Below, piece by piece: positions 26,526-48,947 of a DNA stretch of 64,000 nucleotides. Made by a program: the position numbers and the translations under genes. This DNA is from Cyanophora paradoxa CCMP329. Lineage: Eukaryota; Plantae; Glaucophyta. Within the stretch, counting starts at the first letter, position 1. Each line of letters opens with the position of its first letter. The stretch lies in assembly GCA_004431415.1 (NCBI GenBank), contig QPMI01000395.1:1-64000 (forward strand), read 5' to 3'. The notes beneath the pieces are model-generated. The model was not told where the DNA came from. It ran no database searches and saw nothing but the letters and a program-made list of their open reading frames with translations.

Positions 26526-26567
26526 CTTTGCTATAAAGGAACATTTTTATTTTGGATTTTGAACGCA

Positions 26568-26726
26568 TTAAGTTCTAATGATTCTCACCGTTGTTTCCTT
26601 TGGAATATATATAGTAACATAGTTTCTCTTCCGCCTGTTATTGATACCACAATTATACTTTATGAACTTTGCAACCTCTTCCAAATCACCTTCCACAACC
26701 GATTGGTTCATTTTGACGCTATTCAT
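26568..26726 (-). CDS. Small hypothetical viral protein
   Basis: Short ORF in the slot occupied by GIY-YIG in element A, preceded by two AAAATTGA motifs; no recognisable domain. Confidence 0.4.
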   Translation of the reverse strand: MNSVKMNQSVVEGDLEEVAKFIKYNCGINNRRKRNYVTIYIPKETTVRIIRT

Positions 26727-26786
26727 TTTCAACTGAGACACACGTTCAATTTTTAAATCACCAGTCAATTTTTTATTTTTTATTCG

Positions 26787-26878
26787 GTGTAACGGGTGTA
26801 ACAGGTAAATCCCAAAGTTTTCGGATTTTCACCTCCCTAGGAGCGAAGTTTGGGATTTACCTGTTACACCTGTTACAC
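26787..26878. repeat. Element B internal inverted repeat (30-bp arms with GGTGTAACA iterons), putative replication origin
   Basis: GTGTAACGGGTGTAACAGGTAAATCCCAAA pairs with TTTGGGATTTACCTGTTACACCTGTTACAC (1 mismatch), ~70 bp downstream of the helicase stop. Confidence 0.8.
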
Positions 26879-26946
26879 TTACTGTTTTCAGTAAGGTTAT
26901 AAAAAAAAGTATGAATTATCAGTAAGAATAGTATGTTTTGTTGTAA

Positions 26947-29289: not shown

Positions 29290-29495
29290 TTCGATAATCG
29301 GGGGTGTCTTATCTATGATGGAGAAAAGAGTTTCTCCGGATTCCTGTCATTTTTTGGCGGCTAACCTTTAAGTGGTTGATATCTCTTCAATTACCAAAAA
29401 CGGCAATCGGGAGATGGTTACGGATCTATCGAAGCATATCGATAGACCGCTCGAAAAATGAGTAATTGGGTTCAGCGGTCAAATGGGTATTTCCC

Positions 29496-29732
29496 TCAAT
29501 ACTTTCGTGGACGTCCCCGTGACTTGTTTTCGATTCCCTCCCGCTCCTTACGACGATAATATGAAGCGAGCGATTGCGCCTTCTTATACTCCCGATAAAC
29601 GGGGTCTTCGTTGTAGAGCGTTCGCTTCCTTAGAGCATCTCTCATCTTGTAATTGGCGCGGGTCTCCTCTTCTTCATCGCCGAATTCGACAACGCTAATC
29701 ATGTCTTCGGTTATATGAATTACAGTCGCCAT
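29496..29732 (-). CDS. Small basic protein with C-terminal AT-hook
   Basis: Ends SRGRPRKY; homologous to two element A ORFs; the ATG at 29732 is preferred over the longer non-ATG start. Confidence 0.72.
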   Translation of the reverse strand: MATVIHITEDMISVVEFGDEEEETRANYKMRDALRKRTLYNEDPVYREYKKAQSLASYYRRKEREGIENKSRGRPRKY

Positions 29733-29808
29733 GTTCCCCTTTATATGTAGTTGAGAAAATGTTTTACCACTCTGTATTATGCCTGATGTCTTTAAGTATT
29801 TTATGGTG

Positions 29809-29919
29809 TCATTTTTTGTTGACCAAAGCCAGTTGGTGTCTACGTTCTTCAATTGCAGATTTAACGGCGTAAATCCTTCGTTTCGATAGTATGATGTCGT
29901 AGATCTCTTCGAGTGACAT
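29809..29919 (-). CDS. Conserved 36-aa viral hypothetical protein
   Basis: MSLEEIYDIILSKRRIYAVKSAIEERRHQLALVNKK aligns with 6552-6674 (Y.II..KR..YA...AI). Confidence 0.55.
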   Translation of the reverse strand: MSLEEIYDIILSKRRIYAVKSAIEERRHQLALVNKK

Positions 29920-29940
29920 TTGATACCATAACCAAAGATA

Positions 29941-30158
29941 TTATTTATGATCGTTATGCGAAAACGATCGGCGACGGACAGTCTCAGTTTCCGTAACGGT
30001 GACTGTCTCAGTTGTTATCGAATCTTGCGATTGCCTTCGCCCTCCATTGCTTCCACCATCTGAGAAATCCATTTCGAATTTCGTATCGCAGCAGTCATTG
30101 TGACAATCGGTTACGCAATGCATCTCAAACATCTCAATGATCTTTTTCAGAAACTCCA
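29941..30158 (-). CDS. Small Cys-rich viral protein
   Basis: MEFLKKIIEMFEMHCVTDCHNDCCDT, homologue of 6883-7155. Confidence 0.7.
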
Positions 30159-30185
30159 TTGATTCCCTCTTTAAACAATATATAA

Positions 30186-30917
30186 TTAAAGCCAAACTCT
30201 CCGCTTGTATGCTGTGGGAGCTACACCTTTGTCGACTTCCGCTTTGGTAGCACCAGGTTCAACAGTTCCCTTTTGGGTCTTTGTCTTCAACTCATCTACC
30301 GCTTGTTCGTCAATTTGGGTCTCCTTCTTACCAATAAACTGCTTATCAGGAACACCAGTAATACCCATTCGGAATACCTCTTTGCGCAGCATTTCCTTGA
30401 TTTTCGATCGCTCCTTCTTCTCAGTTACATACTGTTCAAGAGCGCTTGATTTTGCTTCCAGATCCTTTAATTTAGCGGTCATCTCATCCCATTGCGCTTT
30501 CGGGATTCGGTGGATGTTTTGAGTTGGCGCAACCTTGTAAGTAACTTCACCAGCCATCGATTGAATTACCTTGTCGGATTCTTTGGAAACACCTTCACCC
30601 TTGCGAGCGAGGGAAAGATCTTTGAGACCGAGTTCACGATCATCGGCAGCACCGATAATCCGACGGGCGCCTTCACCGACCGCCTTCATCTTCGAGACTT
30701 CCGGCGAGATGTTCAATTGCTCACTTTGGGATGTTTGCGGCGCTTTATCACCGGGCGCTTCTTCATAAGCGGCATTTAAGGGGTCTTCTTCCTGTTGTGA
30801 TGGTTTCACTTCGCTCATTCCGTTGAATTTCATGGGTGTGGTGTTGAGAGATCCATGACTTTCACCGCCGGAATATGACATAGCACCAGCGGGAACACCT
30901 CTACGTTTCGGCGGCAT
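30186..30917 (-). CDS. Conserved viral protein starting MPPKR (candidate core/virion protein)
   Basis: 243-aa intact ORF, highly similar to 7178-7911, directly downstream of the ATPase. Confidence 0.82.
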   Translation of the reverse strand: MPPKRRGVPAGAMSYSGGESHGSLNTTPMKFNGMSEVKPSQQEEDPLNAAYEEAPGDKAPQTSQSEQLNISPEVSKMKAVGEGARRIIGAADDRELGLKDLSLARKGEGVSKESDKVIQSMAGEVTYKVAPTQNIHRIPKAQWDEMTAKLKDLEAKSSALEQYVTEKKERSKIKEMLRKEVFRMGITGVPDKQFIGKKETQIDEQAVDELKTKTQKGTVEPGATKAEVDKGVAPTAYKRRVWL

Positions 30918-30945
30918 TGTATATTTATAACATACAGAGATAATT

Positions 30946-31728
30946 TTACAATCCCCTCTTATATCGCATCAACTTATTCGTGTGAACAGCGCTCTTTATC
31001 TCTTTCGGCGCTTCCTCCTTCTCGGGTGGTTTTAATTCGTCTTCTTTCTTTTTGGGCTTTCTGTGAAACCGAGGAAACCCAAACTCTTTAACGAGTTCCG
31101 CTTTATCAACATAGTATTCCACCGAATAATTCGCAGAACTCCAAATGAGAAACTGATAGGAGTGAACGTATTCCTCAAACATCTTATAGAAAGCGTCTTT
31201 ATCCCGCATGATATTGTATTCTTCTTCAATGGCTTCCAGTTCTTTGCGATTGGCGGCACTAAGGAACATTGCATAATCCGAATTAACGCGAATGGTTGAA
31301 GAAACCTTACGCAGTTTCTGAGTTATGCAGATAATCGAAATTTTCGAATGTCTTCCACGGCTGTAAAGACTTCCAATAATTTTATCACGGGTTAGATCGA
31401 CTATCTCATTGTCTATAAGATCATCGAGAACGACACATAACTGGTTAACGGGTTCTCCTTTCTCAATTTTCTCTTGTCTTTCATCGAGAAGTTTAGCGAT
31501 GTAAGGCGCATCCCATTTACCGAGTTGCAATGTTGCTACTTTATCCCAGAAATGATTGAAACTCGTCCCACTTACAACGAGAACCACATCTATCTTTTTC
31601 GCATCATGTAGCTGTTTTAGCCAATACTTGACCGCTTCGCTTTTACCCGTCGCAGATTTTCCAATTGCTAAGACACGGAATGGTGGGTTTATCATCTCAC
31701 CAGCATTAAATTCGGGAACGTCAGACAT
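30946..31728 (-). CDS. A32-like genome packaging ATPase
   Basis: Near-identical protein to 7940-8722; the true start MSDVPEF is at 31728. Confidence 0.93.
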   Translation of the reverse strand: MSDVPEFNAGEMINPPFRVLAIGKSATGKSEAVKYWLKQLHDAKKIDVVLVVSGTSFNHFWDKVATLQLGKWDAPYIAKLLDERQEKIEKGEPVNQLCVVLDDLIDNEIVDLTRDKIIGSLYSRGRHSKISIICITQKLRKVSSTIRVNSDYAMFLSAANRKELEAIEEEYNIMRDKDAFYKMFEEYVHSYQFLIWSSANYSVEYYVDKAELVKEFGFPRFHRKPKKKEDELKPPEKEEAPKEIKSAVHTNKLMRYKRGL

Positions 31729-31789
31729 GGCGTAGTAGATTCTTCTTAATAAAGATAGATAAAAATAACGAAATCTTACTGATAATGGT

Positions 31790-33190
31790 TTAGAGATTAA
31801 TGCGGCGAATTCCGTCCTTATCGACAATAATGAACGAATGCATGAGAGCGCGAACGTTAACAGTAATTGTGCGATCAGCAGGAAGATATAGAGTGAGGAA
31901 TGATGAAGACGAGTTCGTAAGGTCAACATATCCAGATTGGGCAATGTTGCGAATCGCCTTCTCACCATCAACACAGAATGGGAATCCAGTAAGGACGTAA
32001 CGGTTTGCTTCCTTGTCCATATTCGAGCATTTGAAGGCATCGGCGATGAGTTCCGCACCTTTGAGTAGCGGGATCGGCTCCGTCGAATAAAGACGCTGTC
32101 CGTTGATCTCACAAGTCATCGTGATATCCTTCGCATTCGCAAGCGTTTTAAGGACGCTGTGAGAACCATTCGAGGTATCGACACCATCAGCATCACGAAC
32201 AGAGACAAGAAGAGCATAAACGAGACCGGAGATTTGGCTAAGATTAATTCGGTTGGGTTGAGTGTTACCTTTTGCAGCAACAGCGATAGAATCGACGAAA
32301 CCGATGTCGAGAGCGGGAATAGCCATCCCTGTGGTCTTAACCTTCTCAATAACAGTTGCAAACAGTTCATCAGAAACGTTGATAGCATGCATGTAGAGAC
32401 GAGGTGCTTTAATGGAGATGTAATGGGTCATTGGTGGAACAGTTCCAGCAACTTCGAACCCAGTAATACCGCCAGTGGTGATGTTTTGACCAACATTAGC
32501 AAGTGTAACGCTCGTAGCATTTCCAAGTCCATCATCTGATGATTTATCAGCAGCAGTGCTTCCTACAACAGGAAGAGAGCGACCACCATAAGAAGTTTCA
32601 AGGTATCCCTTGTTAGCTTCCTTAAACCACACAGTGATGACGGCTTCACCCGAGAGAGCGCCAAGTGGTAGATAATGGTTCAACCACGGCACCGGAATTT
32701 CGACGAAGAAAGCGCCACCTTTACGGTTGGTTCCGTGAGCGGGGATACCATGAAGCATTCCCATTGAACGCTTCTTTTTCGCCAGTTGATCCTCAGAATA
32801 GTAGACCAGTGGGAAAATCGCCAGGAAATCAGACGGCACGTGGTAGGTATACGAGCCATACGAGAATTCAAGACGCTCTACAAGCGCACCGACGGGACGA
32901 GTGTAACCATTTCGCACCAGGTCGTCATCACCAGTAAAAGCAGTTAGTTCGGGAAGATCGAAAGCGAGTTCGATTTTACCGACAAAGTTGTAGCGGGGAA
33001 GTTTGAAAGAAACGCGTTGACCAACGTTGTTATCGTAGGTTGTCGATGGACTAACGGTTACCAGAACGGGTTTCGTCTTCGATTCAAGACCAAGCATAAG
33101 CGAGTTATCGAGGAAGAACGCTTTGGCTTCCTCGGGCGTTGTAAGCGCCTCTTTCAGAGAAAGACGTTGAAGGGTCGAGGTAACATCCAT
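31790..33190 (-). CDS. Double-jelly-roll major capsid protein
   Basis: 466 aa, beta-rich; N-terminal pattern G.RVSFKLPR...L.FDLP.L....Y..PVG.LVERLE..YG and VEIP.PW...LPL.AL...ITVWF resembles NCLDV/PLV capsids; lies between the ATPase and the penton. Confidence 0.87.
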   Translation of the reverse strand: MDVTSTLQRLSLKEALTTPEEAKAFFLDNSLMLGLESKTKPVLVTVSPSTTYDNNVGQRVSFKLPRYNFVGKIELAFDLPELTAFTGDDDLVRNGYTRPVGALVERLEFSYGSYTYHVPSDFLAIFPLVYYSEDQLAKKKRSMGMLHGIPAHGTNRKGGAFFVEIPVPWLNHYLPLGALSGEAVITVWFKEANKGYLETSYGGRSLPVVGSTAADKSSDDGLGNATSVTLANVGQNITTGGITGFEVAGTVPPMTHYISIKAPRLYMHAINVSDELFATVIEKVKTTGMAIPALDIGFVDSIAVAAKGNTQPNRINLSQISGLVYALLVSVRDADGVDTSNGSHSVLKTLANAKDITMTCEINGQRLYSTEPIPLLKGAELIADAFKCSNMDKEANRYVLTGFPFCVDGEKAIRNIAQSGYVDLTNSSSSFLTLYLPADRTITVNVRALMHSFIIVDKDGIRRINL

Positions 33191-33244
33191 TCTGTTTTGC
33201 TTTTACTATACAAAAATATAAAAATTCTGTGAATGATCCTTAAT

Positions 33245-34249
33245 TTACGCGAATCCGGCAATATTTGGATAGAAGGGGTGGGTCTCTCTCATTCTCATTT
33301 TGAAATACTCATAAATTGGGTCACCGGCGGGTTCATCACCATAACGGATCTCGAATGTCAGATGCACAGGTTGACCTTCGAAATCGATTAATTCATTTTG
33401 ACCATTCACTACATCTACCGATAGTTGCGATAGTGATAGTTTCTTATTATAGTATTTATACAGCGGATTTGCTTCCGTCGAATTGTAAACAACGTGTTCC
33501 GCAAAGTCTTTATCTTGAACCGTGAGTTTATGGAAGTATCCAGTAAGGAGACCATCGGCACATTGGACGAGGTCACCAAGTTCTTTTACTCTCACGAAAA
33601 AGACGTTATCTTTACAGGTCTCTGTGGGGAATGTTGAGATAATACCGTTTACATTTGCACCTGTAAAAACGGAACTTGTATCTGTTCCATAGACTTGTGA
33701 TTTAATAAACTTGTTTCCCCAGCGTCCAGCATCCAGACCCAAGATTCGAGCGTGTCGTAGCGCTTTCTCGATTGCGGAAACAGAAGGATCTTTTGCATAT
33801 GAGAAGCAAATATAGAATTCCACAGGAGCATAAAAGATAACTCTTTTTGCGGTTACATCCCAACCACAGCGAATTGCAGAAGGAGGCGAGAGATTCTCAA
33901 AACGGTTATTGATTCGGGCAACGAGTTGCTGATGAGTATTGATTGGGGTTTTTAGACCTGCACCAGGTCTAATAGAACGCCAACTATCATATAGAATCTC
34001 AGGAGCATTTGCACCGGTGGATGTGGACTTTTGGCTGAAATTGATAATAAAGGCATCCTCTATTGTTGCATCCCCAGGTTCTGTTTCACCGCTAATGAGT
34101 GGGATGGAGTTATAGAATTCAGCGGAGACGAGGCGAACCGCTCTTACATTCTCATACGTCTTTGGAAGATCCGCAACAAATCGTGATGTTGGAGCATCCA
34201 GATTAGGTATTGTTTTGAAGGAAGACACTTCAACGTATTCCACAGGCAT
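33245..34249 (-). CDS. Minor capsid (penton) protein 1
   Basis: F...LPKTYENV..VRLVSAEF.NS and LSQLSVDVVN..NELIDFEG..VHLTFEI. Confidence 0.82.
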   Translation of the reverse strand: MPVEYVEVSSFKTIPNLDAPTSRFVADLPKTYENVRAVRLVSAEFYNSIPLISGETEPGDATIEDAFIINFSQKSTSTGANAPEILYDSWRSIRPGAGLKTPINTHQQLVARINNRFENLSPPSAIRCGWDVTAKRVIFYAPVEFYICFSYAKDPSVSAIEKALRHARILGLDAGRWGNKFIKSQVYGTDTSSVFTGANVNGIISTFPTETCKDNVFFVRVKELGDLVQCADGLLTGYFHKLTVQDKDFAEHVVYNSTEANPLYKYYNKKLSLSQLSVDVVNGQNELIDFEGQPVHLTFEIRYGDEPAGDPIYEYFKMRMRETHPFYPNIAGFA

Positions 34250-34277
34250 CTTCTTTTATCTATAACCATATAATAAA

Positions 34278-35189
34278 ATGATTCGGCTTGTCAATGTCGA
34301 TAGTAGAGATCGATTAGATGGACAGAAAGAAAATGCTTACAAGGTCTCACTTACCACACCAATAACCAGACCGCGACAGTGTCGTATCTTATATGCAGAG
34401 ATTCCCAACAGCATTTATAATTCGATTGGAACCGATTATATTATAGTTCGTTATAACATTGGTGGTTTCATCCTTAATCAGCAAGTATTCCCATTACCAA
34501 GTGGTTACATAAACCAAGGACACTTTGGAGTTACTCAACCATATAATTACGGTTTAAACTTTGCGGTTACTGAAAACATATTATTTAAGATCTACTACAA
34601 TCCAACGACATACAAGTTAGAGTTTTACAGTAACTATCAATTTGAACTCATCGCAGGAAACAATAGAATCGCAAAATTATTGGGTCTGAGTTCCACGGTA
34701 TTATTAGGTAGTGTAGCGCAGGTAATCGAAAACAATCGGTCTTTATATGCTCCCGAAAATATCTTATTTTATGCAGGGACTCCGATAACACCAGATCACC
34801 CACAATGGGGAATAACATTTGAAGGAGCAGAATTAGTAACGGCACCAATTGCGTTTAAAGCAGTTAGTCCAAAGATGGCGGATATGAACGCTGAGCAATA
34901 CTTGTATATGCACATCAAAGAACTCTCTTCTTTTGCATCCAACCACAATATAGTCCCGAAATCGCAACCGCAGAATCAAGGCGCGATCTTGCGATTACAA
35001 TTGAGTCAGGACATCGGGAAGTATGTTTACCATAGCGGAGAGCATGGTGAATACATAAAAATAACAGACAAAAACCTTGTTATTCGTGAATTAACAGTTG
35101 AATTTCGTGATTATTTTGGTGATCTTGTAGATATGAATGGTATCGATAATTCGTTTCAGTTGGAGTTTGTAGCTATTGGAAACGATTAG
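34278..35189 (+). CDS. Minor capsid (penton) protein 2
   Basis: VNVDSRDR...AEIPNSIYN and LTVEFRDYFGDLVDMNGIDNSFQLEF; homologue of 11246-12178. Confidence 0.85.
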   Translation: MIRLVNVDSRDRLDGQKENAYKVSLTTPITRPRQCRILYAEIPNSIYNSIGTDYIIVRYNIGGFILNQQVFPLPSGYINQGHFGVTQPYNYGLNFAVTENILFKIYYNPTTYKLEFYSNYQFELIAGNNRIAKLLGLSSTVLLGSVAQVIENNRSLYAPENILFYAGTPITPDHPQWGITFEGAELVTAPIAFKAVSPKMADMNAEQYLYMHIKELSSFASNHNIVPKSQPQNQGAILRLQLSQDIGKYVYHSGEHGEYIKITDKNLVIRELTVEFRDYFGDLVDMNGIDNSFQLEFVAIGND

Positions 35190-35790
35190 CTATTGGGATA
35201 TATGGTTTGAAGATATCAGCGACAACACCATTCTGATCCTCTGTATACCATCTGTTGTTTTCGCGAACCCAACGAGCGCCATTTTGTTTAAGGTATTTAC
35301 GTAGAGTCGCTCGGTTCACAATCTTCCATCCATGCTCTTCAAACTTAGCATGATAAGCACGAAGATCTCTTGGAATGTGGAAATAGTAACGTTCACGATG
35401 TTCTTCTTGTCCATAGCATATCCCAATTGCATTAATTACGTCATCGTGAGTCTTTGTAGTGTTGAAAAGAAGATCATGAAAATTAACAACAACGATGAAA
35501 TCAAGTTCAGCATTACGCACTTCATTAAGATGGCTAAACTTACCATGATCATTATAATTCACATGATTATAGAAGAACCGATCATCGCGAGTTCTCGCAC
35601 AAATCCGATCCGAATTTCTCCGAAAATAACCAAAACAAACCATTTGATCCATTCCAGGATAAGAGTATGTTCCAATCTTTCGATGCAAAACCTCAATAGT
35701 TTCAGCAAGATCAAGAATATCCTTCACACCAAATCGCATTTCAGCAATCGGAACCGAGAAGATCGGCTCACCTTCGAAGAGATACGCCAT
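35173..35790 (-). CDS. Hypothetical viral protein (205 aa) in the accessory slot
   Basis: ATG-initiated ORF convergent on penton 2 (same position as patatin in element A), preceded by an AAAATGATTTAAG motif; no recognisable domain. Confidence 0.65.
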   Translation of the reverse strand: MAYLFEGEPIFSVPIAEMRFGVKDILDLAETIEVLHRKIGTYSYPGMDQMVCFGYFRRNSDRICARTRDDRFFYNHVNYNDHGKFSHLNEVRNAELDFIVVVNFHDLLFNTTKTHDDVINAIGICYGQEEHRERYYFHIPRDLRAYHAKFEEHGWKIVNRATLRKYLKQNGARWVRENNRWYTEDQNGVVADIFKPYIPIANRFQ

Positions 35791-36044
35791 GACACTGAAT
35801 TACGTCTGAGAAAATCTTTTACCCGGTTTACTCTATACTGTCGCTTCTTCCTTAAATCATTTTGGGTTGCCCACGAGCATCATTTTTTGAAAGTAAGACC
35901 TCCGTAATATCTAAATTGATAGATGAGAGAATAACAGAGATCTTTTCAGGGTTGGAGAAAGCGGAGAAGCAGATAGCAGCGCGATTTCCGAGTTAATCAC
36001 ACTGAGATTTTGAAGAAATATAACATGTCTTATTGAATATCGTC

Positions 36045-36322
36045 AGGTGTAACAGGTGTAACAGGTAAATCCCAAACTTCGCTCCTAGGGAGGCCAAAAA
36101 CCCAAAACTTTGGGATTTACCTGTTACACCTGTTACACCTTGGGATTCACCTGTTACATCTATCAAACAAAGCATTAATATATTCGATTCCTTACATTGA
36201 TTATAGTGTCATGTAACAGGTGTAACAGGTGTTTCCCAAACTTTCCTCATAGGAGATGAAAAATCCAAAACTTTGGGATTTACCTGTTACACCCGTTACA
36301 CCTTGGGATTCACCTGTTACAC
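36045..36322. repeat. Two subterminal copies of the element B GGTGTAACA inverted-repeat unit
   Basis: 36046-36138 is an inverted copy of 26787-26878 including the spacer (CTTCGCTCCTAGGGAGG); a second diverged copy is at ~36212-36320. Confidence 0.85.
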
Positions 36323-36325
36323 ATT

Positions 36326-37115
36326 GATTATCGACTGTTTAATTGGACATGTTACACTTGAAACACAATTTTGATACAGTAAAAAACAGAATCCAATCTT
36401 ATCAATTGTTTAATTGGACATAATGCAACTCTGGGGTCATTTTTGATACAGTAAAAATCTCAACCGAATCTCATCGATTGTTTAATTGGACATAATGCAG
36501 TAACCATCTCTTCCAACAAAATACGCCGCAATCTCATCAATTGTTTAATTGGACATAATGCAGTAACCATCTCTTCCAACAAAATACGCCGCAATCTCAT
36601 CGATTGTTTAATTGGACATAATGCAGTAACCATCTCTTCCAACAAAATACGCCGCAATCTCATCGATTGTTTAATTGGACATAAGGCAGTAACCATCTAA
36701 TCCAACAAAATACGCCGCAATCTCAACGATTGTTTAATTGGACATAATGCAGTAACGAGTGAATTATTTTCATCCGATATTTCATCGATTGTTTAATTGG
36801 ACATAATGCAGTAACGAGTGAATTATTTTCATCCGATATCTCATCGATTGTTTAATTGGACATAATGCAGTAACAAGTGAATTATTTTCAACCGATATAT
36901 CATCGATTGTTTAATTGGACATAATGCAGTAACCATCTCTTCCAACAAAATACGCTGCAATCTCATCGATTGTTCAATTGGACATAATGCAGTAACGAGT
37001 GAATTATTTTCAACCGATATATCATCGATTGTTTAATTGGACATAATGCAGTAACGAGTGAATTATTTTCAACCGATATTTCATCGATTGTTCAATTGGA
37101 CATAATGCAACTCTG
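36326..37115. repeat. Tandem array, ~13 units of 59-72 bp with a constant core ATCGATTGTTTAATTGGACATAATGCAGTAAC
   Basis: The core recurs at ~36330, 36401, 36473, 36536, 36599, 36662, 36725, 36784, 36843, 36902, 36965, 37024 and 37083, with two main linker types. Confidence 0.92.
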
Positions 37116-37159
37116 TGTGAATTTTTGCGATTTCCGATAGAATGGGCGGTGGACTACTT

Positions 37160-37400
37160 CAATCGTGATTATATCAATCGTGATTATATCATAAATTTAT
37201 GTTCCTTCAATCGAGATTATATCAAATTTGCATAAAATACATATTAATCGCGTTTATATCAATAAATTAATCGATATTATATCAATTGTTTAATCGAGAT
37301 TATTGAAATTTAATATAAAAATACATATTTATCGATTAATTTATACATATTTATTAACATGAAAATACATATTTATCGATTAATTATACAAATTTATTTA
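37160..37400. repeat. AT-rich subterminal short repeats (AATCG.GATTATATC / ATCGATTAAT)
   Basis: Repeated short units directly upstream of the terminal hairpin, analogous to 23655-23912. Confidence 0.7.
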
Positions 37401-37406
37401 AGAAAA

Positions 37407-37491
37407 ACACATAAAGAAATACAAATTTAAATCCAGGAGCGAAGCGCGAAGCGCGTAGCGGAGGGATTTAAATTTGTATTTCTTTATGTGT
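37407..37491. repeat. Terminal fold-back hairpin of element B
   Basis: Perfect 28-bp arms ACACATAAAGAAATACAAATTTAAATCC (37407-37434) and GGATTTAAATTTGTATTTCTTTATGTGT (37464-37491); the loop holds GCGAAGC-GCGAAGC-GCGTAGC (37439-37459). Confidence 0.92.
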
Positions 37492-39365
37492 TGGGTTGCA
37501 GCCATGTCACGCAAAATCCAACGAAAGCAATAGCTAGGATTACGAATGGCTGCATCGATTGTTGGAAAACTTGTAAATCAGATTTGTTGATGAGAAAGTT
37601 GCTCACCAAGTACTTGAGTCCTCTTCCAGCACGTCCCCATCGGTTGGAAAACGAATGCTTCCACTCCCCAATGACATTCCGGCGAAGTTTTGCAGCCTTG
37701 CCATCGGACAACCTGTCATCCGAAATGAATTCAACGTTGAACTCTTATATATAAAATTATAATTCAAAATATTGATGCGACAGTCGCTCACCGAAACATC
37801 AAAGCTCGCGTTGCGAAAAACGCAATTGAGATCATAACAGTCGCAAGGCTTTTCCAGAGTGCTTTCCGATCGATCTGGGTAAGACTTGCTGTGCAGGTCG
37901 CCTTGAAGATTTCGTCGAGCAGAGTTTTGAATGTAACGCGATTGATGTACTTGTCAATGTCGAGTGTGCAGCTGGAGGTGCTACTCTGATCTCCCTCGGT
38001 AGGCTTCGCAGCACTTTCCGAAATCGCAGTCCACTTGCAAGTGCACTTTTTTTGAGGATCACCTTTCGGAGAACGAATGAGGGCTACAATAGTTGAATCA
38101 ATTGAAATATTAATGTCAAGCGGTAATCGCACCATCTTGTTTGTTGGAAGTTTTATCGCGAACTTTGTAATGTTTATTGCGGATGATTCGGTAGTTGGGA
38201 TGTCCACTGTCCGGAAGGAGATAAAGACGAATTCCCATGTCGTTCAGTTCTTTCTCGACCTCCTTGCTGACTTCCTCCGAGTGCACCAGAAGATCGGCAA
38301 TTTCCATCTTGTAATGCTGATGCACCAAAATTTTGGCATTGATGAACTGCTCCTGATCCGAGGTTTGTGTGGACGACTTCGAAGGCTGACATAATTTGAT
38401 TGATGAATGTGTGTAGTACACTGCACATTGCAGAATAACGAGTGCGGCATGATCGAAAAACTGCTTGGCGGGCCGGGCTCCGAGATTAATTCCCATCGAC
38501 CAAGTATGCGCATGCGTCCGGAAGTTTCACGCAAACGAACCGTTAGGAAAAGCAGAGTTTGTGATGCGTCAATAAACCTTTCTTCTTCGTCGGTGGATTC
38601 GAAGCCGTTGCCGGACATTGACTGCAAGGCAAATTTCATGATCAGGCGGCATCAACCGCATCAACGGGACTGCAGCTGCCACACACCCACTCATTAGGAG
38701 TTGGCTTGCTCGTGAAATCGAATGCGGCATCGATGAGCAAGTAGAGAGTAGTTGCCAAAAGAGCAAACAAAAAGCCTGGAAGGCCCCACTTGCGCCACCA
38801 TGATTTTTCGGTGAGGACGTCAAGGTACCGGTCTGACTTTGCTGCGACTTTCTTGCTTTGGACATCATCCGACGAAAACTCGTCTTCGAAGATGCTTCGG
38901 AAACCAAGATATACGATGGCTACCACAATAAAGATAAGGCTGGGCTTCACCGCTGCGAACAGTATCGATATCAAAGCATTATAATTAGTCGATTCTGCAA
39001 TTGCAGCAGCTGCAGATTAAAAGTACTTTGCTGAGCGCGCGCGCAGACGATAGCGCAGCTCAGTTCCATGGCCAGTGCTATAGCTAGCACTATGAAAAAA
39101 GTTAATGATCCAGTGATTGCACCTGACGTGTTGATGAGCGTTAAGCTAGCGAAGCAGCTGCTCTTCAGGATCTCGTCAAGGAGCTCGACCCAGAAGCGCC
39201 CCATGAGATATCTGTCGACGTTGAAGTACAGTACAGCCGCCCAAGCACGCTTGTGATCCTCATCATAAATATCGTAGTCATCATCATGATCATCGGCACG
39301 CTCCCCTTCGGCGCGCTCCTCATAGGGGCGCTTCTCATCACGATCAACTGCGCGAGAATCATGAT
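37492..39365 (-). other. Possible host gene fragments (membrane-protein-like exons), unresolved
   Basis: Several minus-strand ORFs, 38642-38974 with two hydrophobic segments; no recognisable family, and no gene model could be built. Confidence 0.25.
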
Positions 39366-41332
39366 AAGCTCTGGCTAGCGCTCTAGCAAGAGCACAAGTT
39401 ACCTACAACATGATCTTGCATGCATATGCGCACCTATAACGTTGACTTGGTTCGTCGAGGTACCGGTATCATAGTATCCGTTGGTACTCATGATATCGAT
39501 ATCGATATCTTTCAGATCGCAATCGCTGCAAGAGGTATCAGTGGCTCAGCGGTTTCGCAGCTCATGATCAGCGGCTACTTGAAATACTGTACATGCGATA
39601 ACGCATCGATATCTGCTAGCCATAGATCTAGAATTCCATTGCAAGTTGGGTCTCCGACGACTTTCCGTGGCACGCACCTTCGAATTCAAGGCTTCGTTAT
39701 AACTCAGTGCGTTAGGTACGGTACACACGCTTGGCAACCTGCCAGGCTGGCCGGCCGCATGCGCAGCCTCAGCGCAGGGAGTCCAGGGACTGTCACCGTG
39801 TCACGTCAGTGTCTCAGTCTGTCTGGCCCAGAGCCTGGCCATATGCATGGGCCAGAGCCTGACTCAGTGAGAGCTCACGATCGATATCGACGCGGACGTA
39901 CGTTACGGTACTACGGTACGTAATTATATACTGTCACAGTGTACATGATAAACGCGTCAGCCACGCTGTACGGTCTGTACCGCGGCCGTCCTGTACGGTT
40001 ACTACGGTACAGTACCGTACAGACTGTACCGTAGTACAGTGTACATGTAGTGCCCGGCCACGTGGCAGATCTAGACTGGCAGTATGGCACATGCACAGAG
40101 ACGACGGCGCGCGAGGCTCATGAATTTAATCATGAATATTAATCATGATCACTGGTGAGTCAGTGGTGAGTCAGTGGTGACTCACTGGTGAGTCATAGAC
40201 TCACAGACTCACAGTGACTCACTGAGTCACTGGCCCTGGCCGGGGCCCTACTACTTACTAAGTTAGGCTAGCTGAGCCAGCCTCAGGCCCTCAGCCAGGC
40301 CCTGCCCAGGCTGCCCTGGCCCCTGAGGCTATAATAATTACGTAATACGTACCCCCCGGGCCGGTAATAATTGGCCCTGTATTATTAGGCTGTATATGCC
40401 ATGACGTAGCGGCGAAAATCCCCAATGACTCAGTATAGTGGCTCTGCAGCCTCTGCTACCGGGGTACACTGGGCCCAGCCTCCCAGCCTGAGTCCCAGGG
40501 CCCCTGTGCGGCGGTGAGTCACTGCAGCTGAGTGGGGGCCACTGGGGGGCCACTGGGGGCCTGTGGCCCAGGCTGTGGGCCCAGTAGTAGAGGCCCGAGA
40601 GGCTGTGGGCCCAGTGTGGGGCCACTGTCACAGTGTGCGGCTGTACATGTGTGCCGCGGCCGCATGCGCAGTCTCAGGCTGTGCGGCAGTCTGTGCCCAG
40701 TGCCCACGGGCCACTACTGGAGAGCTAGAAATATTTAGTGGGCTGCATATTTATAGTACTAAAAGTTTTTGGGCGATCTACTAAATATTTCTCGCCTGCT
40801 AAAGCCGAGAATTTGTAAAGGTAGCCCCGCCTCCGCCATACAAACGCCCTGCGAAGATCGACTGACCTACTAAAGTTTTACCAGCTGCTAAAGTGGCAGT
40901 TTTGGCGAAGTACTAATTATTTTCCTGTACTAAATTAACCAGTTCTATAGTAGTACTGCGCATGCCCACTGCCCAACCCCTAGCTATATATATATAAAGA
41001 GCGGCAGTAGTACAGCCAGCTACGTATACGTATTACGTACTACGGTATACAGCCTACAGCCTACAGGCCACTGACTCTACAAGTTATTTGGAACCGGTTC
41101 CTAGCCGTACGGCGGCACCTAGACCCAGGCGGCACCGTGGCACTGCGCGCGGCAGTGCCATGCGGCCACGCCCACAGGCGGCACTGCGCGCGGCAGTGCC
41201 ATGCGCTACCAGTATAGCTACCCGGTACTACGGTAGTGGCATGCACTGCCGCAGTGCGGCAGTGCCACCGTGGCACGGCCCGCACGGGCCGCACGGCCAC
41301 GGTCGTGCGCATGCCGCAGTGCGAATACACGC

Positions 41333-41841
41333 TAGGGTTGCCGCTTCCTAGGAAGTTTCCTACGCCCCCATGGAAACGGAAACTGATAGGAAGTTTCCAT
41401 AGTTTCCTAGGAAACTTCCTATCTTTCCCATACCAGCGCGTCTCGCGACTGTTCTCGCATAAGACAGGCGTTTAGAGATGCCTGGGTGCCTTTTCTGTGC
41501 TATTTCACGTTCCTGATGCGTTAATTCGCTTCAGACACAAGCATTTTGTGGGTGGCTCAGGGGGGGTAGGCCTTCACACAGGGACCCAGGAGCCTGAAAA
41601 TGCTTGATTCCTGACGCAACTAAGCTTGTTTTCGAATATAATGCCGGTTTGTACAATTAAGACATCGTTCTGGAGCCTCGAACTGTGCGTTTCAGGGGGT
41701 TTCCGCCGTGGCTCCAACCGCGGCTTTTGTATGAGAGCGCCAGTTTCCTAGGAAGTTTCCATCGCCCAATGGAAACAGAAACGGAAACTTTGCACTTCCT
41801 AGGAAGTTTCCATGCATGGAAACTTCCTACCGGCAACCCTA
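41333..41841. mobile_element. Non-autonomous hAT-type MITE (509 bp)
   Basis: TIRs TAGGGTTGCCG / CGGCAACCCTA, a perfect 8-bp TSD ATACACGC (41325-41332 and 41842-41849) and subterminal GGAAAC/GTTTCC repeats. Confidence 0.9.
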
Positions 41842-42269
41842 ATACACGCAGACTCTGACTCTGTGAGAAAGCACAGATATATATATAATGTTACAGAGTA
41901 GTCTGAGAAGAGGCAGAGTCTGAAGTATTTATTAGTCCGGGGTTTTGGCATCTTTATTACCAAATAAATATATTTATTACTTGGGGCTGAGAGCTTTATT
42001 AGCGCTAGCGGTCTTTATTACGGGGTGCCCCCCGCCCCGGGCCGAGTCCCGACCCCCCTCCGCGGGCCGCGCACAGTATACCTTACACAGTTACACTTAA
42101 GTAGTGCGCGGACTTAACAATGCGCCCCGAAAATAAATGCGTATTCCGCTAGCGCGCTGGCAAAACGCATTAATATTGAAGCGCTAAGAAATTGCGGTCT
42201 GTACCCCCCAGATGCAGCCAAAAAGCTTCGAAACGCATTAATTTGATGCCGCATAATCCCGAGTCCCGG

Positions 42270-45200
42270 CTCGTAAGCAGCTGACCGCGCAAGAGGCCTG
42301 CTACGTTGTCGAGGCCGTCGTGCAGGCGCGGATCGCCTACGGGCTCAAAGTGACGCCGCTCACAGAGAAGCAGTGCGATCGCCTAGATGCCATCTGGATG
42401 CGCGTGGTTAAGCACCATGGGGGCCTGGCGGCATCGACTTCCAACTACGCGCTCTGGAGCCACGGCACGTACAGCCTGCCGCGCACAGCGCACCTGATGG
42501 CCAAGAACCAAATCACGGATCTGCTCGTGCGGCTCTGTGGAGAACCGGAAGAGCTGCTATCCCAGGTGATGTTGCACCGCATCCGAGACCTCCAGCGAAA
42601 GCTAGGCGTCCCGCTGCTGCCGACCGAGTTCCTGAACGCCCCAGTGTCACGCCAGCTTGCTCGATCGAACGCAATCGCCGCAGTGATGCCGCTCCTGCAG
42701 CGCCGGCTCTACCGGATCCAGTCCAACCACGCCCGCTTCCTGTTTACGCCGTACCCCCCCGCAGCCACTTGGCCCGACCCCGCGGAACTGCGCCGGGAAT
42801 TCGTGCTTGCCTCACACATTCCCCGGGAAGTGTTCAGCACGGCCGCGCCCGCCCTCCACCGCGCACGACTCTACTGGATGTCCGACGTCACGGCGCGCGA
42901 TGGGGCACGCCTCTGCACCTGGCGAGACCTGCACCTCCGCGCCCCCTGCGGCACGCTCCCTTGGGCAGCGCCCGCCTGGTGGAAGGCGGTGGCCAAGGCC
43001 CTCACGATCGACGGGCGCGGTTCGGGCGCCCTCCGATACCCCATGCGGCAACCGCCCGGTACCCCTTCCTCGGCCATGGTACAGCTTCCGGGCGGGGCAA
43101 GGAAGTTAATTCACCAACCGGGAGACTTCGTCTGCTACTACGACCTCGCAACGATTCACGAGACGGATGCGGTACCGGAAATCGGCCGGGTCCGCTCCGC
43201 CGAGGCTGAGGCCGGCAGCCTAGTAGCGACGGAGTGCCGGCTGGAGCACTGGGTCCCCGTCCCAGAAGAGGCCGACGACGAGGCCGACGGAGCCTACTGC
43301 CGCTGCGATGGCCACTGTCAGCTCGGACCCCGCGAAGGGCCGCCCGCCCCAGCTGCGCGCCGCTTTAATATCGTACCGGGAGAGGGCCGCCGCCACTGGC
43401 ACGACGACCACGTCTGCCCTCAAGGCGCCGGCGCGGCCTGCCGGGCGACGAGCACCTGCGATGACGAGGGCAAGTACGGGACGGCGGTGGGAGGATGGGT
43501 AGAGCACGCGTCCGCACTCTGCACGATCCCCGGCACGGTGGAGCTAGTAGAAGTGTCGGGCGCCCCCGTGGAAGAATGCGAGGGGCAGGTACAGACGCGC
43601 TCGGGGCGCGCCAGTCGCCAGGTCCTGCGCCAAGCCCGTCTTGAATACTTCAAGCCCTCCAGGCAGGCGGCCGCGACCATCACTGCGCACCGATGGCGGA
43701 TGCTGCTGCAGGCAAAGCAGGAGGGCGATGAGCGGGTCAACTGGCACCTCCTCTCCGAGCCCGACGCCGCTCACCTCGCCACGCTCGAGGCGAACCCGCC
43801 CGACTTGCCCCCCTGCCGCAAGATGAAGCGCCCCCGGTCAGCTCCAACAAGGAGGCGCGCGAGCTATATTACTATCAGGCCGATCCGTACAGTTGGGTTG
43901 CATACCTGGAGACCTGGAAGGGCCTCGAAGCCCGCTACCGCAAAGAGCACCTGGAGGCCGAGGCGGCGCCTGGCGGCTCATACGTGGCCGACGCCCCAGC
44001 GTACGCCTGGACGGACGGGAGCCTGAAAGAGGGCCAGACGGTTAACGCTCGCGCGGGCTACGCAGTACACTGGCCGGAAACGGACCTCAGAACTGGCGCA
44101 AGCCTGCACCCGCCGGGTATCCTCACGGACTTCTTTGCCCGGCTCCGGGGCCTGCAGGAGATCAACAAGGCGGAACTCCAGGCGGCGCTTATGGCTGACC
44201 TGCTCTCGCCTTTCGGAGCGGTTCTACACGTCGACAACATGAACGCGATCCGCTGGTACTCCGATTTCGTCCAGCACGCGAGCTGCCGCAGCCCGCGGGA
44301 ATACATCCGGCACGCCTGCTCCGCGGAACTGTACGCATGGAGCAAGCTCAGGACAATGCTAGAGGAGCGCGGGCGGCCGCTCAAACTCGTCAAAGTCAAA
44401 GCGCACGCAAAGGGCGACGCCCGCGACCCCCACAACGACGTCGCGGACGCCGGAGCGAACGTGGCGGCCGACCTGGAGCTGGCGGACGAACACCGGCATG
44501 AGCCTCTCTTTCTGCCGCCGGCCTTCAGCATGCCTGCGGTGCTCACCATCAGCGACCCCGACGGGCGCACACGACGGGTGGAAGGGGACCCCAAGGCACA
44601 CATGGACGCACTTCACGAGCACCAGACGCACTTTGCCTGGACCCAACAACCGCTGGCTGGCGCGCTCCTGCGCCGAGGCGCCGACGGCGCAGACATAGCA
44701 GGGCTATATGCGGAAACGAGCGTAGGTTCCCGATTCCAAGGCGCCAATGGAGCCCGCAACGCGCTATTCAAGTTTCGGACGCAGCTGCTCTGTAGCTCGC
44801 TACCAGCGAACGAAGTCCGGGTACGTGACCAGAAGGAACTCTACGCCGCCTGCAACCCTGGGGGACGCTGTGCGGGCTGCGCCACCAGAACGCCGCTCCC
44901 TCGTGCAGAGACTAGCGGCCCGACAGCCTCACAGAACAGCCAGACTGCAACAGAGGCCTCGCATGCTCAACCAGCAGCGGGCGCCAGCCGCCCGATCCGG
45001 GCACCGACGGCTCTCACCGCAGGCCCGACTGAAACTTTCCCGCACGTCTTCCTGTGCCCGGGTCCGCATGCGGTCGCGCACCGCGCGGAGACTGCTCGCG
45101 AACTGAACCGACTTCTGCTCTGCGCATACAGAGAGGCCCACGGCCTCACAGCGCCGCCAGCAGGAGCCCTCCTTGCTCCCGACCTGGTCCCAATCTTCCT

Positions 45201-46734
45201 CCGCGTCGCGGACGACGACACCGAGGCGCGCAGCTACGATGGTAGGCCGTACGCGTATCCGCGCCTCTGGGTGCTCCAGGGCCTTGCTCCGCAGAGTCTA
45301 GAAAGCGCCCTCACACGCTGCCTGAACCTTGCACCCCGGTACGCGGCACGCGCAGCTAAACGCGTTCGGCAAACGCTTCTGGAACGGGCCCGACGCCTCT
45401 GGTCACGTCGCTGCGAAATCAACGCGGAGTGGGAACGCGACTGCCGCGTCTCCCAGGCCTCAAAGAAGCGACCGCGCCCGCCCCGCACGGGCGCCCGCGC
45501 CCGAGAGCGGGCCCGCGGCCCCGGACCTGTAAGGAAGTCTGCGCCGCCTGCGACGGGCCGATTCGCCTTCACAATCTACTCAACGCCGCTCGGAACGCAG
45601 ACTGCCCACCGGAGTACGCGGGCTGGAAGGCGGCGCTCCGCGCCCAAGAGCTCTACGATTGCGTCAAGGTACGCCCTTGGGAGTCACATCCTAGCCGCTC
45701 TAAACGGTACCCCGAGCCGCGCGAAAGGGGGGGGGGGGGGGGGGGGCTACGTCGGGAGGAGACTCTCGACACCACCTACCTACTACTTCACCATACCTAG
45801 TCCTCGAGAAACTTACCTGATCTACTCTTAGCCTCGCACACACTAGATATAGCCGCCCCGACCGACTCGCTGGGCCCCGCCCAAGCGAGCGCCTGCCTTG
45901 CCTCCCTCTCCCGCTCTGCCCTCCCGCTCGCTCTCTTGGCCCTGCCTCCATTCACGACCTCGCCCGCGCTCCTCGCGCCTCGACAGGGAGGGAACGATGG
46001 ATCGGAAGGCTTGGCGGAAGGCTTCGGCTGGTCGTTGCACCCACCAGATACCCCGGCCATCGTGCCAGGACCGTGGGTTGAAGGACCGCCGCGGAGGGGG
46101 GCTCGCAATTGCCCGCGGCGGGGGTGCGGCGGCTGGTTCGAGGCTGGAAGCCCTGCTGACCGAGAAATCCGACCCTCCCCTCCCCGCCACGGCCGGCGCC
46201 GACCTTCTCCGTCCCGCCCCACTTCTTCCCCGCAACGTCCCCCTCGCCTCATTCCCCTCGGCCCTCTACGCCGACGTGCTTCCACCCGCGCTTCGGGCGA
46301 GCGGCCCCCTCGACGCGGAGCCCGCCGCGCTAGCTGTAGTCGCGGCCGCGTCGAGAGTAGGCAGATTAGACCGCGGGTCCGTCCTGGCTTTCCTACCGTA
46401 CAGTAGAACAGCCCGCGAGCTCCGGACGTCCCGACGGTCCCTAGGCAGGCAGCACTAGCAGTAGTAGTGTTTTAATTTACCTCCCTCTCGTAGACCCTGG
46501 GTAGTCCTCTCGGTAGCCTAGTCCTAAGCTAGGCTAGATGTATAGGTAGTAGCTCTCTGCTCTGGGTTAGCTTTGCTTTAGTTTACGTCTCCTTGACTAG
46601 CTCCACCCTGTCCGATGGCTGATAGGTTCCCTACCCGGCGTAACCAGTAGGCTCATCTTTCGACTTGACACTTTACGGACTCCTCAGTTCTATCATTAGC
46701 CGTATTGTCTCGGTGTGTGCGAATTCACTAATGG
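42270..46734 (+). mobile_element. 5'-truncated non-LTR retrotransposon (LINE) with RNase H
   Basis: 17-bp TSD ATAATCCCGAGTCCCGG at 42253-42269 and 46735-46751; the ORF starts mid-RT-thumb; no poly(A) tail. Confidence 0.88.
42272..45831 (+). CDS. LINE ORF2 C-terminal part: post-RT region, RNase H and CCHC Zn finger (frameshift in a C-run near 43810)
   Basis: RNase H motifs WTDGS, NKAELQA, HVDN, VKVKAH and HNDVAD; CAGC...ETFPHVFLC Zn knuckle; the N-terminal RKQLT...YVV.AVV.ARIAY resembles the RT thumb. Confidence 0.85.
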
Positions 46735-46751
46735 ATAATCCCGAGTCCCGG

Positions 46752-47445
46752 GTCCGGGACTCCGGGTCCAAAGACTCATTAATATTAATATTGAGCGCAT
46801 TACTGCAGTAATATTGTGTTATACGGTACTTACCTTGTAGTTACTCACCTATAATTGTTACTTACTCCGTGTTCGCATATGAGCTCAACAAGCAAGATCA
46901 TCGGAATCGAATTCAATCGATGATCGGATCTGGAGCGCGGGTGAGTTGAACTGAGTTCAACGGTTGCATGAAAACAATTCAGAAGTCCCGGAGTCCTCTA
47001 TCAATGTGACAACGTCGACGTGCACGGTCGACGTCGTGCCACGGTGCACCAACTTAGGCAAGCGCACGTGCACGTGCACGTTGCCGCATCGCCGCGGCCG
47101 TCAACGTCGACGTCATTGCGGGAAGTCGCAAGCCTGCAGGCTGGCAAGACTCGCAACGTCAGTTACCGTAAAACACATGTACAATATTAATGCGCTCAAT
47201 ATTAATGCGTTTTTGGACCCGGCCCCCAAGTGTGGCGAATAATGCGCCCCCAAATTAATGCGTTTTTACGCTTCGTCGCCTGCGCATGCATTAGAGGGGT
47301 ACTGAGGTCTTCTGACAGCAGTTTCTTCGCAATCTGGTATAATCAGTGGTATTAATGCGCCCCCAAATTAATGCGCGTTTCCACGGCAAAATACGCATTA
47401 AATTGGGGATCCGGACGCATTAATATTATGCGCACATTAATATTC
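46752..47445. repeat. Foldback/MITE-like element rich in TAATGCG/CGCATTA; its left part (42093-42252) is separated by the LINE
   Basis: The same motif family (TTAATGCG..., GGCAAAACGCATTAAT) occurs on both sides of the LINE and at 48090-48170 and 48833-48947. Confidence 0.55.
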
Positions 47446-48170
47446 TGTTTTACGGTAACGTTGCGGGAACCGTACGCGTTGAACTTGCCATGGCCAGTTG
47501 CCAACTTGGCAAGTTGCCGCCCAACTTGCCGGTACTACTTGGTCCGGTAGTACTACGGTACTACGGTAGGTCCGGCCCGGCGGTACTTGCAAATTACTAA
47601 AAACCGCACCACATAAATACCGCACCCCATATATACCGCACCCACTTAATTACCGCGGTACCAAATTACCGCGCCAAGAGTTTGTTAAAACGCGGTAATT
47701 TGGTACCGCGGTAATTCTCTCCGCAGAAGATACCCCGTACAGTACCCCTCCAACATTACCGCGGTATTTTGCTCTATGGCGGGCCGGGTGCGGTAATTTA
47801 TGCCGCGGTAATTGCCAGACGGGGCCGCCGCCCCCCGCCGGGCGCCGGCCGGCGGCGCGGCGCCGGCGCCAACCGCCGCCAAGATATCCATGCATATGAT
47901 TATCGCGATCGATTGGTCTGAAATTCAGACTCTGAATCGAGTTGCGTTGAAGCACAAGGTGATTGGACATTCAATGCTTCTGGTCTGAAATTTTAGACAT
48001 GCATATGCATAATCATAGTGTGCGCGGCGCTAGCGCAGCAGTAGAAGCGCTGCGCGCGCGCACAGCGCCGCACACTGCCGCACAGCGGCGCACTTAAGTA
48101 CTGCGGTCCCAAATTAATGCGTTTTTTGCTGGCAAAACGCATTAATCATTGAATTCGGGACCGCATTACT

Positions 48171-48414
48171 GTCAGTTCATTATGTTAGACGGATTCTCGT
48201 CTATACGGTATAGACGAGCGAGCTAGCGCTGATTCGTCTAACTAAAACCATCATAACAGGTCGTCACACGGCGTAGACGGGGCGCTACCATAGTAATGCC
48301 TCATAGCAGCGGTACCAAGCTCGTCTATCATTGACCACCGTGGCACGTGACCACGTCTATCGCGCACGGGCTGCAAACGTCTAACAAAGGCGACGTCTAA
48401 CATAATGAACTGAC
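48171..48414. mobile_element. MITE-like element with 21-bp perfect TIRs
   Basis: GTCAGTTCATTATGTTAGACG / CGTCTAACATAATGAACTGAC with internal CGTCTA repeats; no clear TSD. Confidence 0.7.
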
Positions 48415-48832: not shown

Positions 48833-48947
48833 ACTTAATTAAGTAATGCGCGCACTTAAGTAATGCGGTCCCTAATTAATGCGTTTTTCGCTGGCAAAAC
48901 GCATTAATTTGGGACCGCATTACTTAAGTGCGCGCATTACTTAAGTA
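48833..48947. repeat. Near-perfect palindromic foldback repeat
   Basis: TTAAGTAATGCGCGCACTTAAGTAATGCGGTCCC...GGGACCGCATTACTTAAGTGCGCGCATTACTTAA. Confidence 0.8.

Follow-up and report, generated by a model that had tools for sequence, protein, structure and literature searches.

The question raised by this locus is what a perfect hairpin at the very tip of an integrated virus might do. The window, meaning the whole stretch of 64,000 nucleotides of Cyanophora paradoxa CCMP329 that was analysed, holds two viral elements in succession: element A at positions 1-23987, with its left end beyond the window, and element B at 23988-37491. The terminal hairpin of A (23915-23987, plus strand) has arms at 23915-23942 and 23960-23987 and a 17-nt loop, and that of B (37407-37491, plus strand) has arms at 37407-37434 and 37464-37491 and a 29-nt loop. 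The two stems of the original prediction were recovered with 28 perfect pairs out of 28 in each case, and that of B amounts to 29 pairs once the flanking A/T is counted.

Both elements have the same gene order, in which pPolB, an element-specific dyad, a primase-helicase, a shared 243-aa ORF, an A32 ATPase and the MCP are followed by two shared ORFs, accessory genes, dyads, AT-rich ATCG(A/T) repeats and the hairpin. In element B, these are the pPolB (23988-26525, minus strand), which is cut after residue 846 by hairpin A, the primase-helicase (26947-29289, minus strand; Prim-Pol, D5_N and DUF5906), the A32-type packaging ATPase (30946-31728, minus strand), the MCP of double jelly-roll (DJR) type (31790-33190, minus strand) and two divergent ORFs common to A and B (33245-34249, minus strand, and 34278-35189, plus strand). 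These two ORFs had no informative family match and are, by their position, candidates for minor capsid proteins. In element A, the pPolB (1-2700, minus strand) is split by frameshifts into many frames and runs off the left edge of the window, the primase-helicase (3370-5960, minus strand) is spread over three ORFs with PriCT-2 and DUF5906, and the ATPase, a frameshifted MCP and the two MCP-adjacent ORFs (7940-12178) are 68-75% identical to B at the DNA level. The ATPases matched Pox_A32 with E values of 6e-11 and 2e-10.

Several other features of the gene content were observed. A frameshifted fragment of a GIY-YIG nuclease, present in A only, lies between the dyad and pPolB (2782-3126, minus strand; Pfam E 0.0012, below the cut-off). 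A 10-kb accessory block in A (12168-22924), absent in B, encodes F5/8 type C and patatin proteins, a phage-tail-repeat (PTR)/H-lectin fibre, two C1q-domain fibres and an AdoMet decarboxylase. Small basic ORFs with a weak AT-hook match at their end are located at the same position in both elements (6177-6503 and 29496-29852, minus strand) and are candidates for binding the AT-rich subterminal repeats. The many frameshifts of A, compared with the mostly open ORFs of B, fit either decay or an unpolished assembly. No integrase (rve or tyrosine recombinase) and no HUH endonuclease family was found among the 36 ORFs scanned, a set that stops short of the left part of A, beyond the window, and of the displaced left part of B; no maturation protease was seen within the window.

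Judged by sequence, A and B are polinton-like viruses (PLVs) with their nearest capsid relatives among the endogenous viruses catalogued for Cyanophora paradoxa. They share the PLV hallmarks of a DJR MCP, an A32 packaging ATPase and a pPolB with a primase-helicase. The B MCP had two relatives among 1.84 billion representatives, namely P0001, from C. paradoxa and 57-60% identical to it, and P0002. P0001 appears in Table S2 of Bellas et al. 2023 (PMC10120064), where HHpred gives 98.5% to an iridovirus MCP, and another MCP of the same table agreed by eye with the B MCP at 48 of the first 49 residues. The presence of P0001 and of this closer MCP in the accessible tables makes A and B members of a catalogued endogenous family of PLV type. 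That study reports 366 C. paradoxa MCP genes in two 'new' clusters, and the accessible portion of its main text makes no mention of hairpins or palindromes. A C. paradoxa PLV with a fibre bearing PTR and H-lectin domains, like that of element A, figures in the accessible text of a study of cryptophyte PLVs (PMC12220804). In the Atlas, the clusters nearest to the B MCP carry Capsid_NCLDV/Capsid_N, with a score of 0.98 and recognition below the reliable level, while a model of this protein (pLDDT 37) had DJR capsids in 9-10 of its top PDB rows (E 0.003-0.009), which is weak support.

The position of each hairpin relative to the end of its element was then considered. The pPolB of B aligned to a full-length relative (1083 aa) until residue 846, the last codon before stem A, and the arrest of the alignment at the codon adjoining the stem fixes the boundary of A within a base. 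This suggests that element A was inserted into element B, the other half of which would lie outside the window. At the end of B, homology to the end of A stopped at ATGTGT, GC content rose, and an open frame of 84 codons belonging to the non-viral flank entered the stem; such a frame was obtained in 2.9% of 2000 shuffles, but at 31% of the local-flank positions. The claim that each boundary is the last base of the stem was thus borne out for A by the break in pPolB, while for B, where homology, GC and the open frame define it, the boundary is set less sharply. The window contains just the right-hand ends of the two elements, with no TSD seen in it, and each hairpin may itself cap a TIR, so the contrast originally drawn with the long TIRs of canonical elements lapses. 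The non-viral flank (37492-38974, minus strand) is apparently a spliced membrane-protein gene, with no family match above the cut-off. The junctions of A and B have no common target motif. On the minus strand of 23960-23999, the outer arm of A and the equivalent stretch of the A pPolB gene agree in 9 of 13 bases in the register set by the break in the B pPolB; this may be chance, or it may point to pairing of the end with its target.

Folding of the two hairpins gave z values of -11.8 to -14.2 on all four strands, none of 200 dinucleotide shuffles was equally stable, and about 6e-9 stems of such kind are expected by chance in 64 kb. Further long stems of 34, 32, 26 and 22 bp were found elsewhere in the window, so stem length alone is not distinctive; hairpins A and B are set apart by their terminal position and their mutual homology. 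Some of the other palindromes are concentrated in two regions (39900-42300 and 46700-49000) with dense short palindromes and longer dyads, which flank a retroelement-like RNase H region (42320-45831) and contain a 34-bp stem (48839-48944), a 26-bp stem (47648-47716) and repeats of TAGGAAGTTTCC (41349-41829); neither region showed similarity to the viral elements. A host ankyrin-repeat ion channel of TRP/polycystin type lies further on (52504-56122, plus strand). Rfam gave no match in the 64-kb window, phage DNA gave none to positions 36000-37491, and no terminator-like site was found at the end of B.

Comparison of the stems of A and B showed that 21 of the 28 bases are identical and that these are spread along the full length, which is about the level at which the capsid modules agree in DNA sequence (68-75%). 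The stems had been described as sharing only their ends, with compensatory change in the middle. The first part of this description does not agree with the distribution of the identical bases, while the second does, as all seven differences are mirrored: 7 of the 28 pairs are changed, each of them on both arms, and none of the 56 cells is unpaired. This level of co-variation was reached by 3 of 500 shuffles, in what is a single comparison of two sequences. Seven two-sided changes, with no pair broken, imply either mutual correction of the arms or selection for their pairing. The mirrored substitutions show arms that pair or are copied from each other, and do not indicate the priming agent. The outermost seven pairs (ACACATA/TATGTGT) are invariant between A and B.

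The loops contain the motifs that had been predicted, with the heptamers GCGAAGC, GCGAAGC and GCGTAGC beginning at 37439, 37446 and 37453 in B, and GGCG-GAA-CGCC between GA/GA in A. The proposal of GNA-triloop or parvovirus-like multiple ears was not supported by folding, which favours one rod in B, or by the single apex of A, which is closed as G-GAA-C and hence no GCGNAGC. The computed rod of B, with one GCGC-GAA-GCGC apex, has an energy of -31.0 to -32.1 kcal/mol. The three-ear fold, at a computed -22.7 kcal/mol, was rejected on this basis, the computed two- and three-ear folds both lying 8-9 kcal/mol above the rod, with the caveat that nearest-neighbour rules may undervalue sheared G.A pairs. 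On the plus strand, the loops are symmetric and purine-rich (GA/GA in A, GGA/GGA and GAA/GTA in B), a pattern that, going by known DNA structures, could stack via sheared G.A pairs. A and B share one plan, in which the stem leads through an interior rich in purines to a GC clamp topped by a GAA apex. The orientation of the loop is alike in the two elements, and the strand bearing GAA is in both hairpins (2/2) the strand that ends 3' at the element end, a polarity that is weak evidence when drawn from two copies.

Inward from the hairpins, AT-rich tandem repeats occupy positions 36300-37406 of B (59/63-bp, then 22/23-bp units) and 23650-23914 of A (27/55-bp units). The frequency of ATCG(A/T) in these subterminal regions was 27 per kb in B and 45 per kb in A, versus 7 and 3.6 per kb, respectively, inside the elements, and a 69-bp stretch of the A repeats matched the subterminal region of B at 77%. 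Next to these repeats, two B-specific dyads (36045-36315) consist of the 9-bp repeats (GGTGTAACA)2 plus GGTAAATCCC, which we label iteron-like; a third, inverted copy (26786-26878), 95% complementary over 93 nt to 36047-36139, is located between the primase-helicase and pPolB genes. Element A carries a different cluster of repeats and dyads near its right end (23195-23640), with the words AGTCAACT, GTTGACTAAG and GAGTCCAC, and an inverted copy of it (3170-3360) between the primase-helicase and the GIY-YIG/pPolB genes. Each element therefore has its own dyads twice, in inverted orientation, beside the primase-helicase gene and near the right end. The primase-helicases of A and B showed no similarity by blastn or tblastx, and the dyads are likewise unrelated. 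As a separate observation, dyad sequence and type of primase-helicase differ together, as if origin and initiator were exchanged as a unit. The cumulative skew follows gene orientation and gives no clear origin.

The B pPolB belongs to the EndoVII-containing group. A search with the whole protein gave no match, nor did a PDB sequence search, while its region 480-846 had 364 homologues; motifs were counted in the 80 sequences of more than 1150 aa found among the 120 matches listed of these 364. Among these listed matches, a GSG[WF]-type terminal-protein (TP) loop is present in 76 of the 80, and the exonuclease I and II motifs are each kept in 78 of the 80. B and its homologue P0003 have neither the GSG[WF]-type loop nor the exonuclease I and II motifs, and the exonuclease domain of both is shortened by a deletion of some 93 residues, as seen with 40 of the 80 aligned. 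The pPolB fragments of A have the same DSY loop and the same exonuclease loss as B. This DSY is kept in the TP loop of A, B and P0003, and reads QVDSY in B. The identity between B and P0003 is 55% in the vOTU, 52% in the polymerase core, 37% in the TP region and 26% in the N-terminal exonuclease part. The vOTU residues Cys235 and His336 are invariant in the 29 sequences aligned (29/29), by which the putative dyad for TP release is intact. Residues 500-537 of the B pPolB form an Endonuclease VII-like insert, which carries D519, H520 and a CxxCN motif and is of a kind common among the homologues. The lineage of B and P0003 can be described by what is gone, the exonuclease motifs and about 93 residues, and by what is kept, the TP, the vOTU and the EndoVII insert.

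An AlphaFold model of residues 101-360 of the B pPolB (mean pLDDT 85) gave the succession helix, three strands, helix, loop and strand, and matched the N-terminal regions of adintovirus/MELD pPolBs with an E value of 1e-18. Ser188 falls in the modelled loop that joins helix 2 to the last strand (strand 4). The linking residue has this same position in the accessible text of Krupovic et al. (10.1101/2024.03.18.585575), where Gly or Pro stands beside it in all D1 domains. The loop of B has neither Gly nor Pro beside Ser188, and its helix 2 is four residues shorter than in the homologues. The B pPolB is thus predicted to have lost its proofreading motifs and retained the TP fold. As the vOTU is as conserved as the core and the exonuclease part is only 26% identical with its motifs lost, the TP-releasing protease appears to have been kept while proofreading was dropped.

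The co-varying arms and the homologous termini make folded single-stranded DNA the best reading of this end, in line with the original prediction, and of its three options (self-priming, a local duplex origin for protein priming, a substrate for integration) the second is preferred. We tentatively propose that the hairpin tip acts as an end origin, formed by fold-back, for protein priming. Strand displacement would expose the end as a single strand, or replication driven by the primase-helicase would leave it as a 3' overhang. The predicted fold of the strand that has its 3' end at the tip is a rod with the GAA loop as its cap, and this fold would re-form a 28-bp duplex locally, in place of a panhandle of 15-25 kb. 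The TP domain of pPolB would prime the copying of the end on the folded rod, with the invariant outer ACACATA/TATGTGT as a possible priming template, the dinucleotide repeat of which would suit sliding-back, the mechanism of phi29 and adenovirus. The inner arm would serve as a repair template for the outer arm, and the arms would stay identical to each other while their sequence drifts. An integrase from outside the window would join the extended duplex end to the target DNA. The preference for TP priming comes from the vOTU being kept with proofreading lost, from the invariance of ACACATA and from the constant polarity. Counting against it are the TP loop without Gly/Pro, the absence of the GSG[WF] motif and the low identity (37%) of the TP region. 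In addition, a perfectly paired 3' end beside its template is a natural self-primer, so protein priming at this end would need a block to run-on extension.

A tested bacterial precedent for such an end is known. In the accessible text on Streptomyces (PMC5449611, PMC4513846), TP-capped telomeres have 3' overhangs that form GNA-loop hairpins with sheared G.A closure, and an end that has been truncated is restored by being extended along the fold-back. By analogy, A and B could belong to a lineage of eukaryotic DJR viruses with the replication mode of a linear Streptomyces replicon, with the primase-helicase copying the bulk and pPolB patching the telomere, although we consider this wider reading unlikely. 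The exchangeable primase-helicase would then copy the bulk of the genome from its own iteron-like dyads, and the proofreading-dead pPolB would be a dedicated telomere patcher whose TP primes on the GAA-capped 3' fold-back. If true, this would explain the presence of two replication systems per element and provide a non-parvoviral mechanism for hairpin-tipped PLVs.

The main rival to a fold-back origin for protein priming is a self-priming 3' hairpin with terminal resolution, as in parvoviruses or poxviruses and in the model of Haro et al. 2026 (bioRxiv 10.64898/2026.07.28.741278); the closed end would be opened by a nuclease 28 bp from the loop and the opened form would integrate. The accessible text of that preprint describes palindromes within TIRs, beside TSDs, in virophage subtypes 1, 2, 5 and 6 and PLV subtype 4 of Halocafeteria seosinensis, retrieved by a palindrome screen that allowed gaps of up to 10, and, with parvo- and poxviruses as its model, proposes that replication is primed by the hairpin. 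The palindromes there occur preferentially with non-pPolB replication genes, which, together with the primase-helicases of A and B, means that the hairpin may belong to the primase-helicase system. The arm length of 28 in both our elements is also near that of the 52-nt palindromes of Halocafeteria virophage subtype 5. We nevertheless regard self-priming as a somewhat unlikely explanation. The 3' end is fully paired next to its template, primase-helicases of D5/SF3 type are present and the TP loop deviates from the family motif, all of which it would accommodate, but strict resolution predicts both flip and flop and a single loop orientation was found in A and B, and the vOTU dyad is retained. 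No HUH nickase was found among the 36 ORFs scanned in the window, and GIY-YIG is present in A only. The EndoVII-like insert of pPolB, with D519, H520 and CxxCN, has a fold that cuts branched DNA, yet it is common in homologues, and 15 distant pPolB loci were without a terminal stem.

Single-stranded DNA hairpins are recombination substrates in the attC sites of integrons, the attP site of CTX phage and the ends of IS200/IS605. The hairpin could in the same way be a folded substrate for integration or excision by a tyrosine recombinase or an HUH-type enzyme, with no part in replication. The location of junction A at the last stem base and the purine-rich, strand-asymmetric loop are consistent with this, but no tyrosine recombinase or HUH-type enzyme was found in the window and the two junctions have no common target motif; moreover, the distant pPolB relative at locus L016 has an rve integrase beside pPolB, and rve acts on duplex ends. 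We therefore rate this explanation as improbable.

Two further alternatives are each less probable again. It is very doubtful that the end does not fold and consists of inverted duplex binding sites, for an integrase or the packaging ATPase, at an ordinary TIR tip kept symmetric by conversion. A and B do carry other dyads made of repeated words resembling binding sites, but sequence recognition alone needs no mirroring and the differences between A and B stay mirrored, and at the axis both loops keep a GAA apex on a GC stem. Slimmer still is the chance of a single-strand initiation signal for the primase of the element, whose position at the end would let copying of the displaced strand start from the tip. 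Mini-hairpins occur at primase sites, with GAA mini-hairpins in ssiA of RSF1010 and in the G4 origin, in the accessible text of PMC13037366, and the iteron-like dyads, AT-rich repeats and hairpin of our elements are arranged in series; however, the hairpins are homologous while the primase-helicases of A and B are unrelated, and a primase site has no need of a flush element end. An assembly or fold-back artefact is scarcely credible, since the many frameshifts of A do recall poorly polished long-read assemblies but the hairpins are two differing homologous sequences of equal arm length at equivalent positions, with structured, non-palindromic loops.

Searches for further copies of the fold-back end were made with proteins and with a half-site pattern. 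The B MCP, the A ATPase and the B pPolB each retrieved no related locus in viral contigs, and an alignment of the MCP gave 0 of 305 candidate stretches in metagenome contigs. The pattern ACACAT-N17-AATCC-N(10-40)-GGATT-N17-ATGTGT had no match in viral contigs, three in metagenome contigs and one in genome contigs. Three half-site matches were rejected because only 14-15 of 28 positions are paired and there is no tblastx similarity to the window; the match at L003 has 27 of 28 paired, but it lies within a longer unrelated inverted repeat and also has no tblastx similarity. Alignments of pPolB led to 15 distant loci, none of them with the B MCP, and showed a stem of at least 18 bp in 4 of the 15, all internal, and long TIRs in 2 of the 15. 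The lack of a terminal stem of at least 18 bp at these 15 loci is a weak negative, since several contig ends lie beyond the 10-kb flank. At L016 (3211-14173), a distant PLV-like contig has an MCP-sized ORF, an ATPase, a pPolB and an rve integrase converging on pPolB; by analogy with this layout, the integrase of our elements might lie beyond the left edge of the window.

Parvovirus telomeres are terminal fold-backs in which the 3' end is paired and the loop bears small GC-rich hairpins. A and B resemble them in these general features, but have no HUH Rep/NS1 among the 36 ORFs, carry a dsDNA DJR gene set, show a single apex in place of T/Y ears and have no flip/flop in the two copies (2/2). Polintons/Mavericks with an EndoVII-containing pPolB share the TP, the vOTU and the EndoVII insert with our elements, whereas A and B have lost the exonuclease motifs, have an altered TP loop and an extra primase-helicase, and show no maturation protease or integrase in the window, and the B MCP has only two detectable relatives. 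The telomeres of Streptomyces are alike in several respects (PMC5449611, PMC4513846, accessible text): a linear replicon with a TP, GNA-loop hairpins on the 3'-ending strand, a trait that the GAA apex reproduces in both A and B (2/2), sheared G.A pairs and fold-back repair. This literature itself draws a rabbit-ear comparison with parvovirus hairpins. The Streptomyces system differs in being bacterial, in carrying as many as seven short palindromes within some 180 nt and not one 28-bp stem, and in priming by Tap and not by a B-family polymerase. No Pfam match to Tap/Tpg was found among the ORFs scanned, so Streptomyces is an analogy of mechanism and not of membership.

The literature search, which covered few subscription papers, found palindromic PLV or virophage tips only in the Halocafeteria preprint and no paper on the ends of the Cyanophora family; hairpins are not mentioned in the accessible portions of PMC12721341 and PMC8502044. 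The end structure can no longer be called undescribed, as was first suggested, because terminal palindromes and hairpin priming are already in that preprint (10.64898/2026.07.28.741278). Replication and integration of PLVs and polintons have hardly been tested, and the same preprint calls for such tests. In the Halocafeteria elements as in ours, an integrated DJR virus ends right at its tip in a local palindrome, and the arms are of similar length (52 nt in total in subtype 5, 2 x 28 in A and B). As far as the accessible text allows comparison, they differ in that the loops of A and B are 17-29 nt long and GC-rich, with a conserved GAA apex, and in that A and B carry a pPolB with a predicted TP domain in addition to a primase-helicase. 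A and B go beyond that text in three ways: the arms co-vary between viruses that have diverged, the loop is structured and asymmetric, which lets its orientation be read off any copy, and the pPolB retains its predicted priming apparatus.
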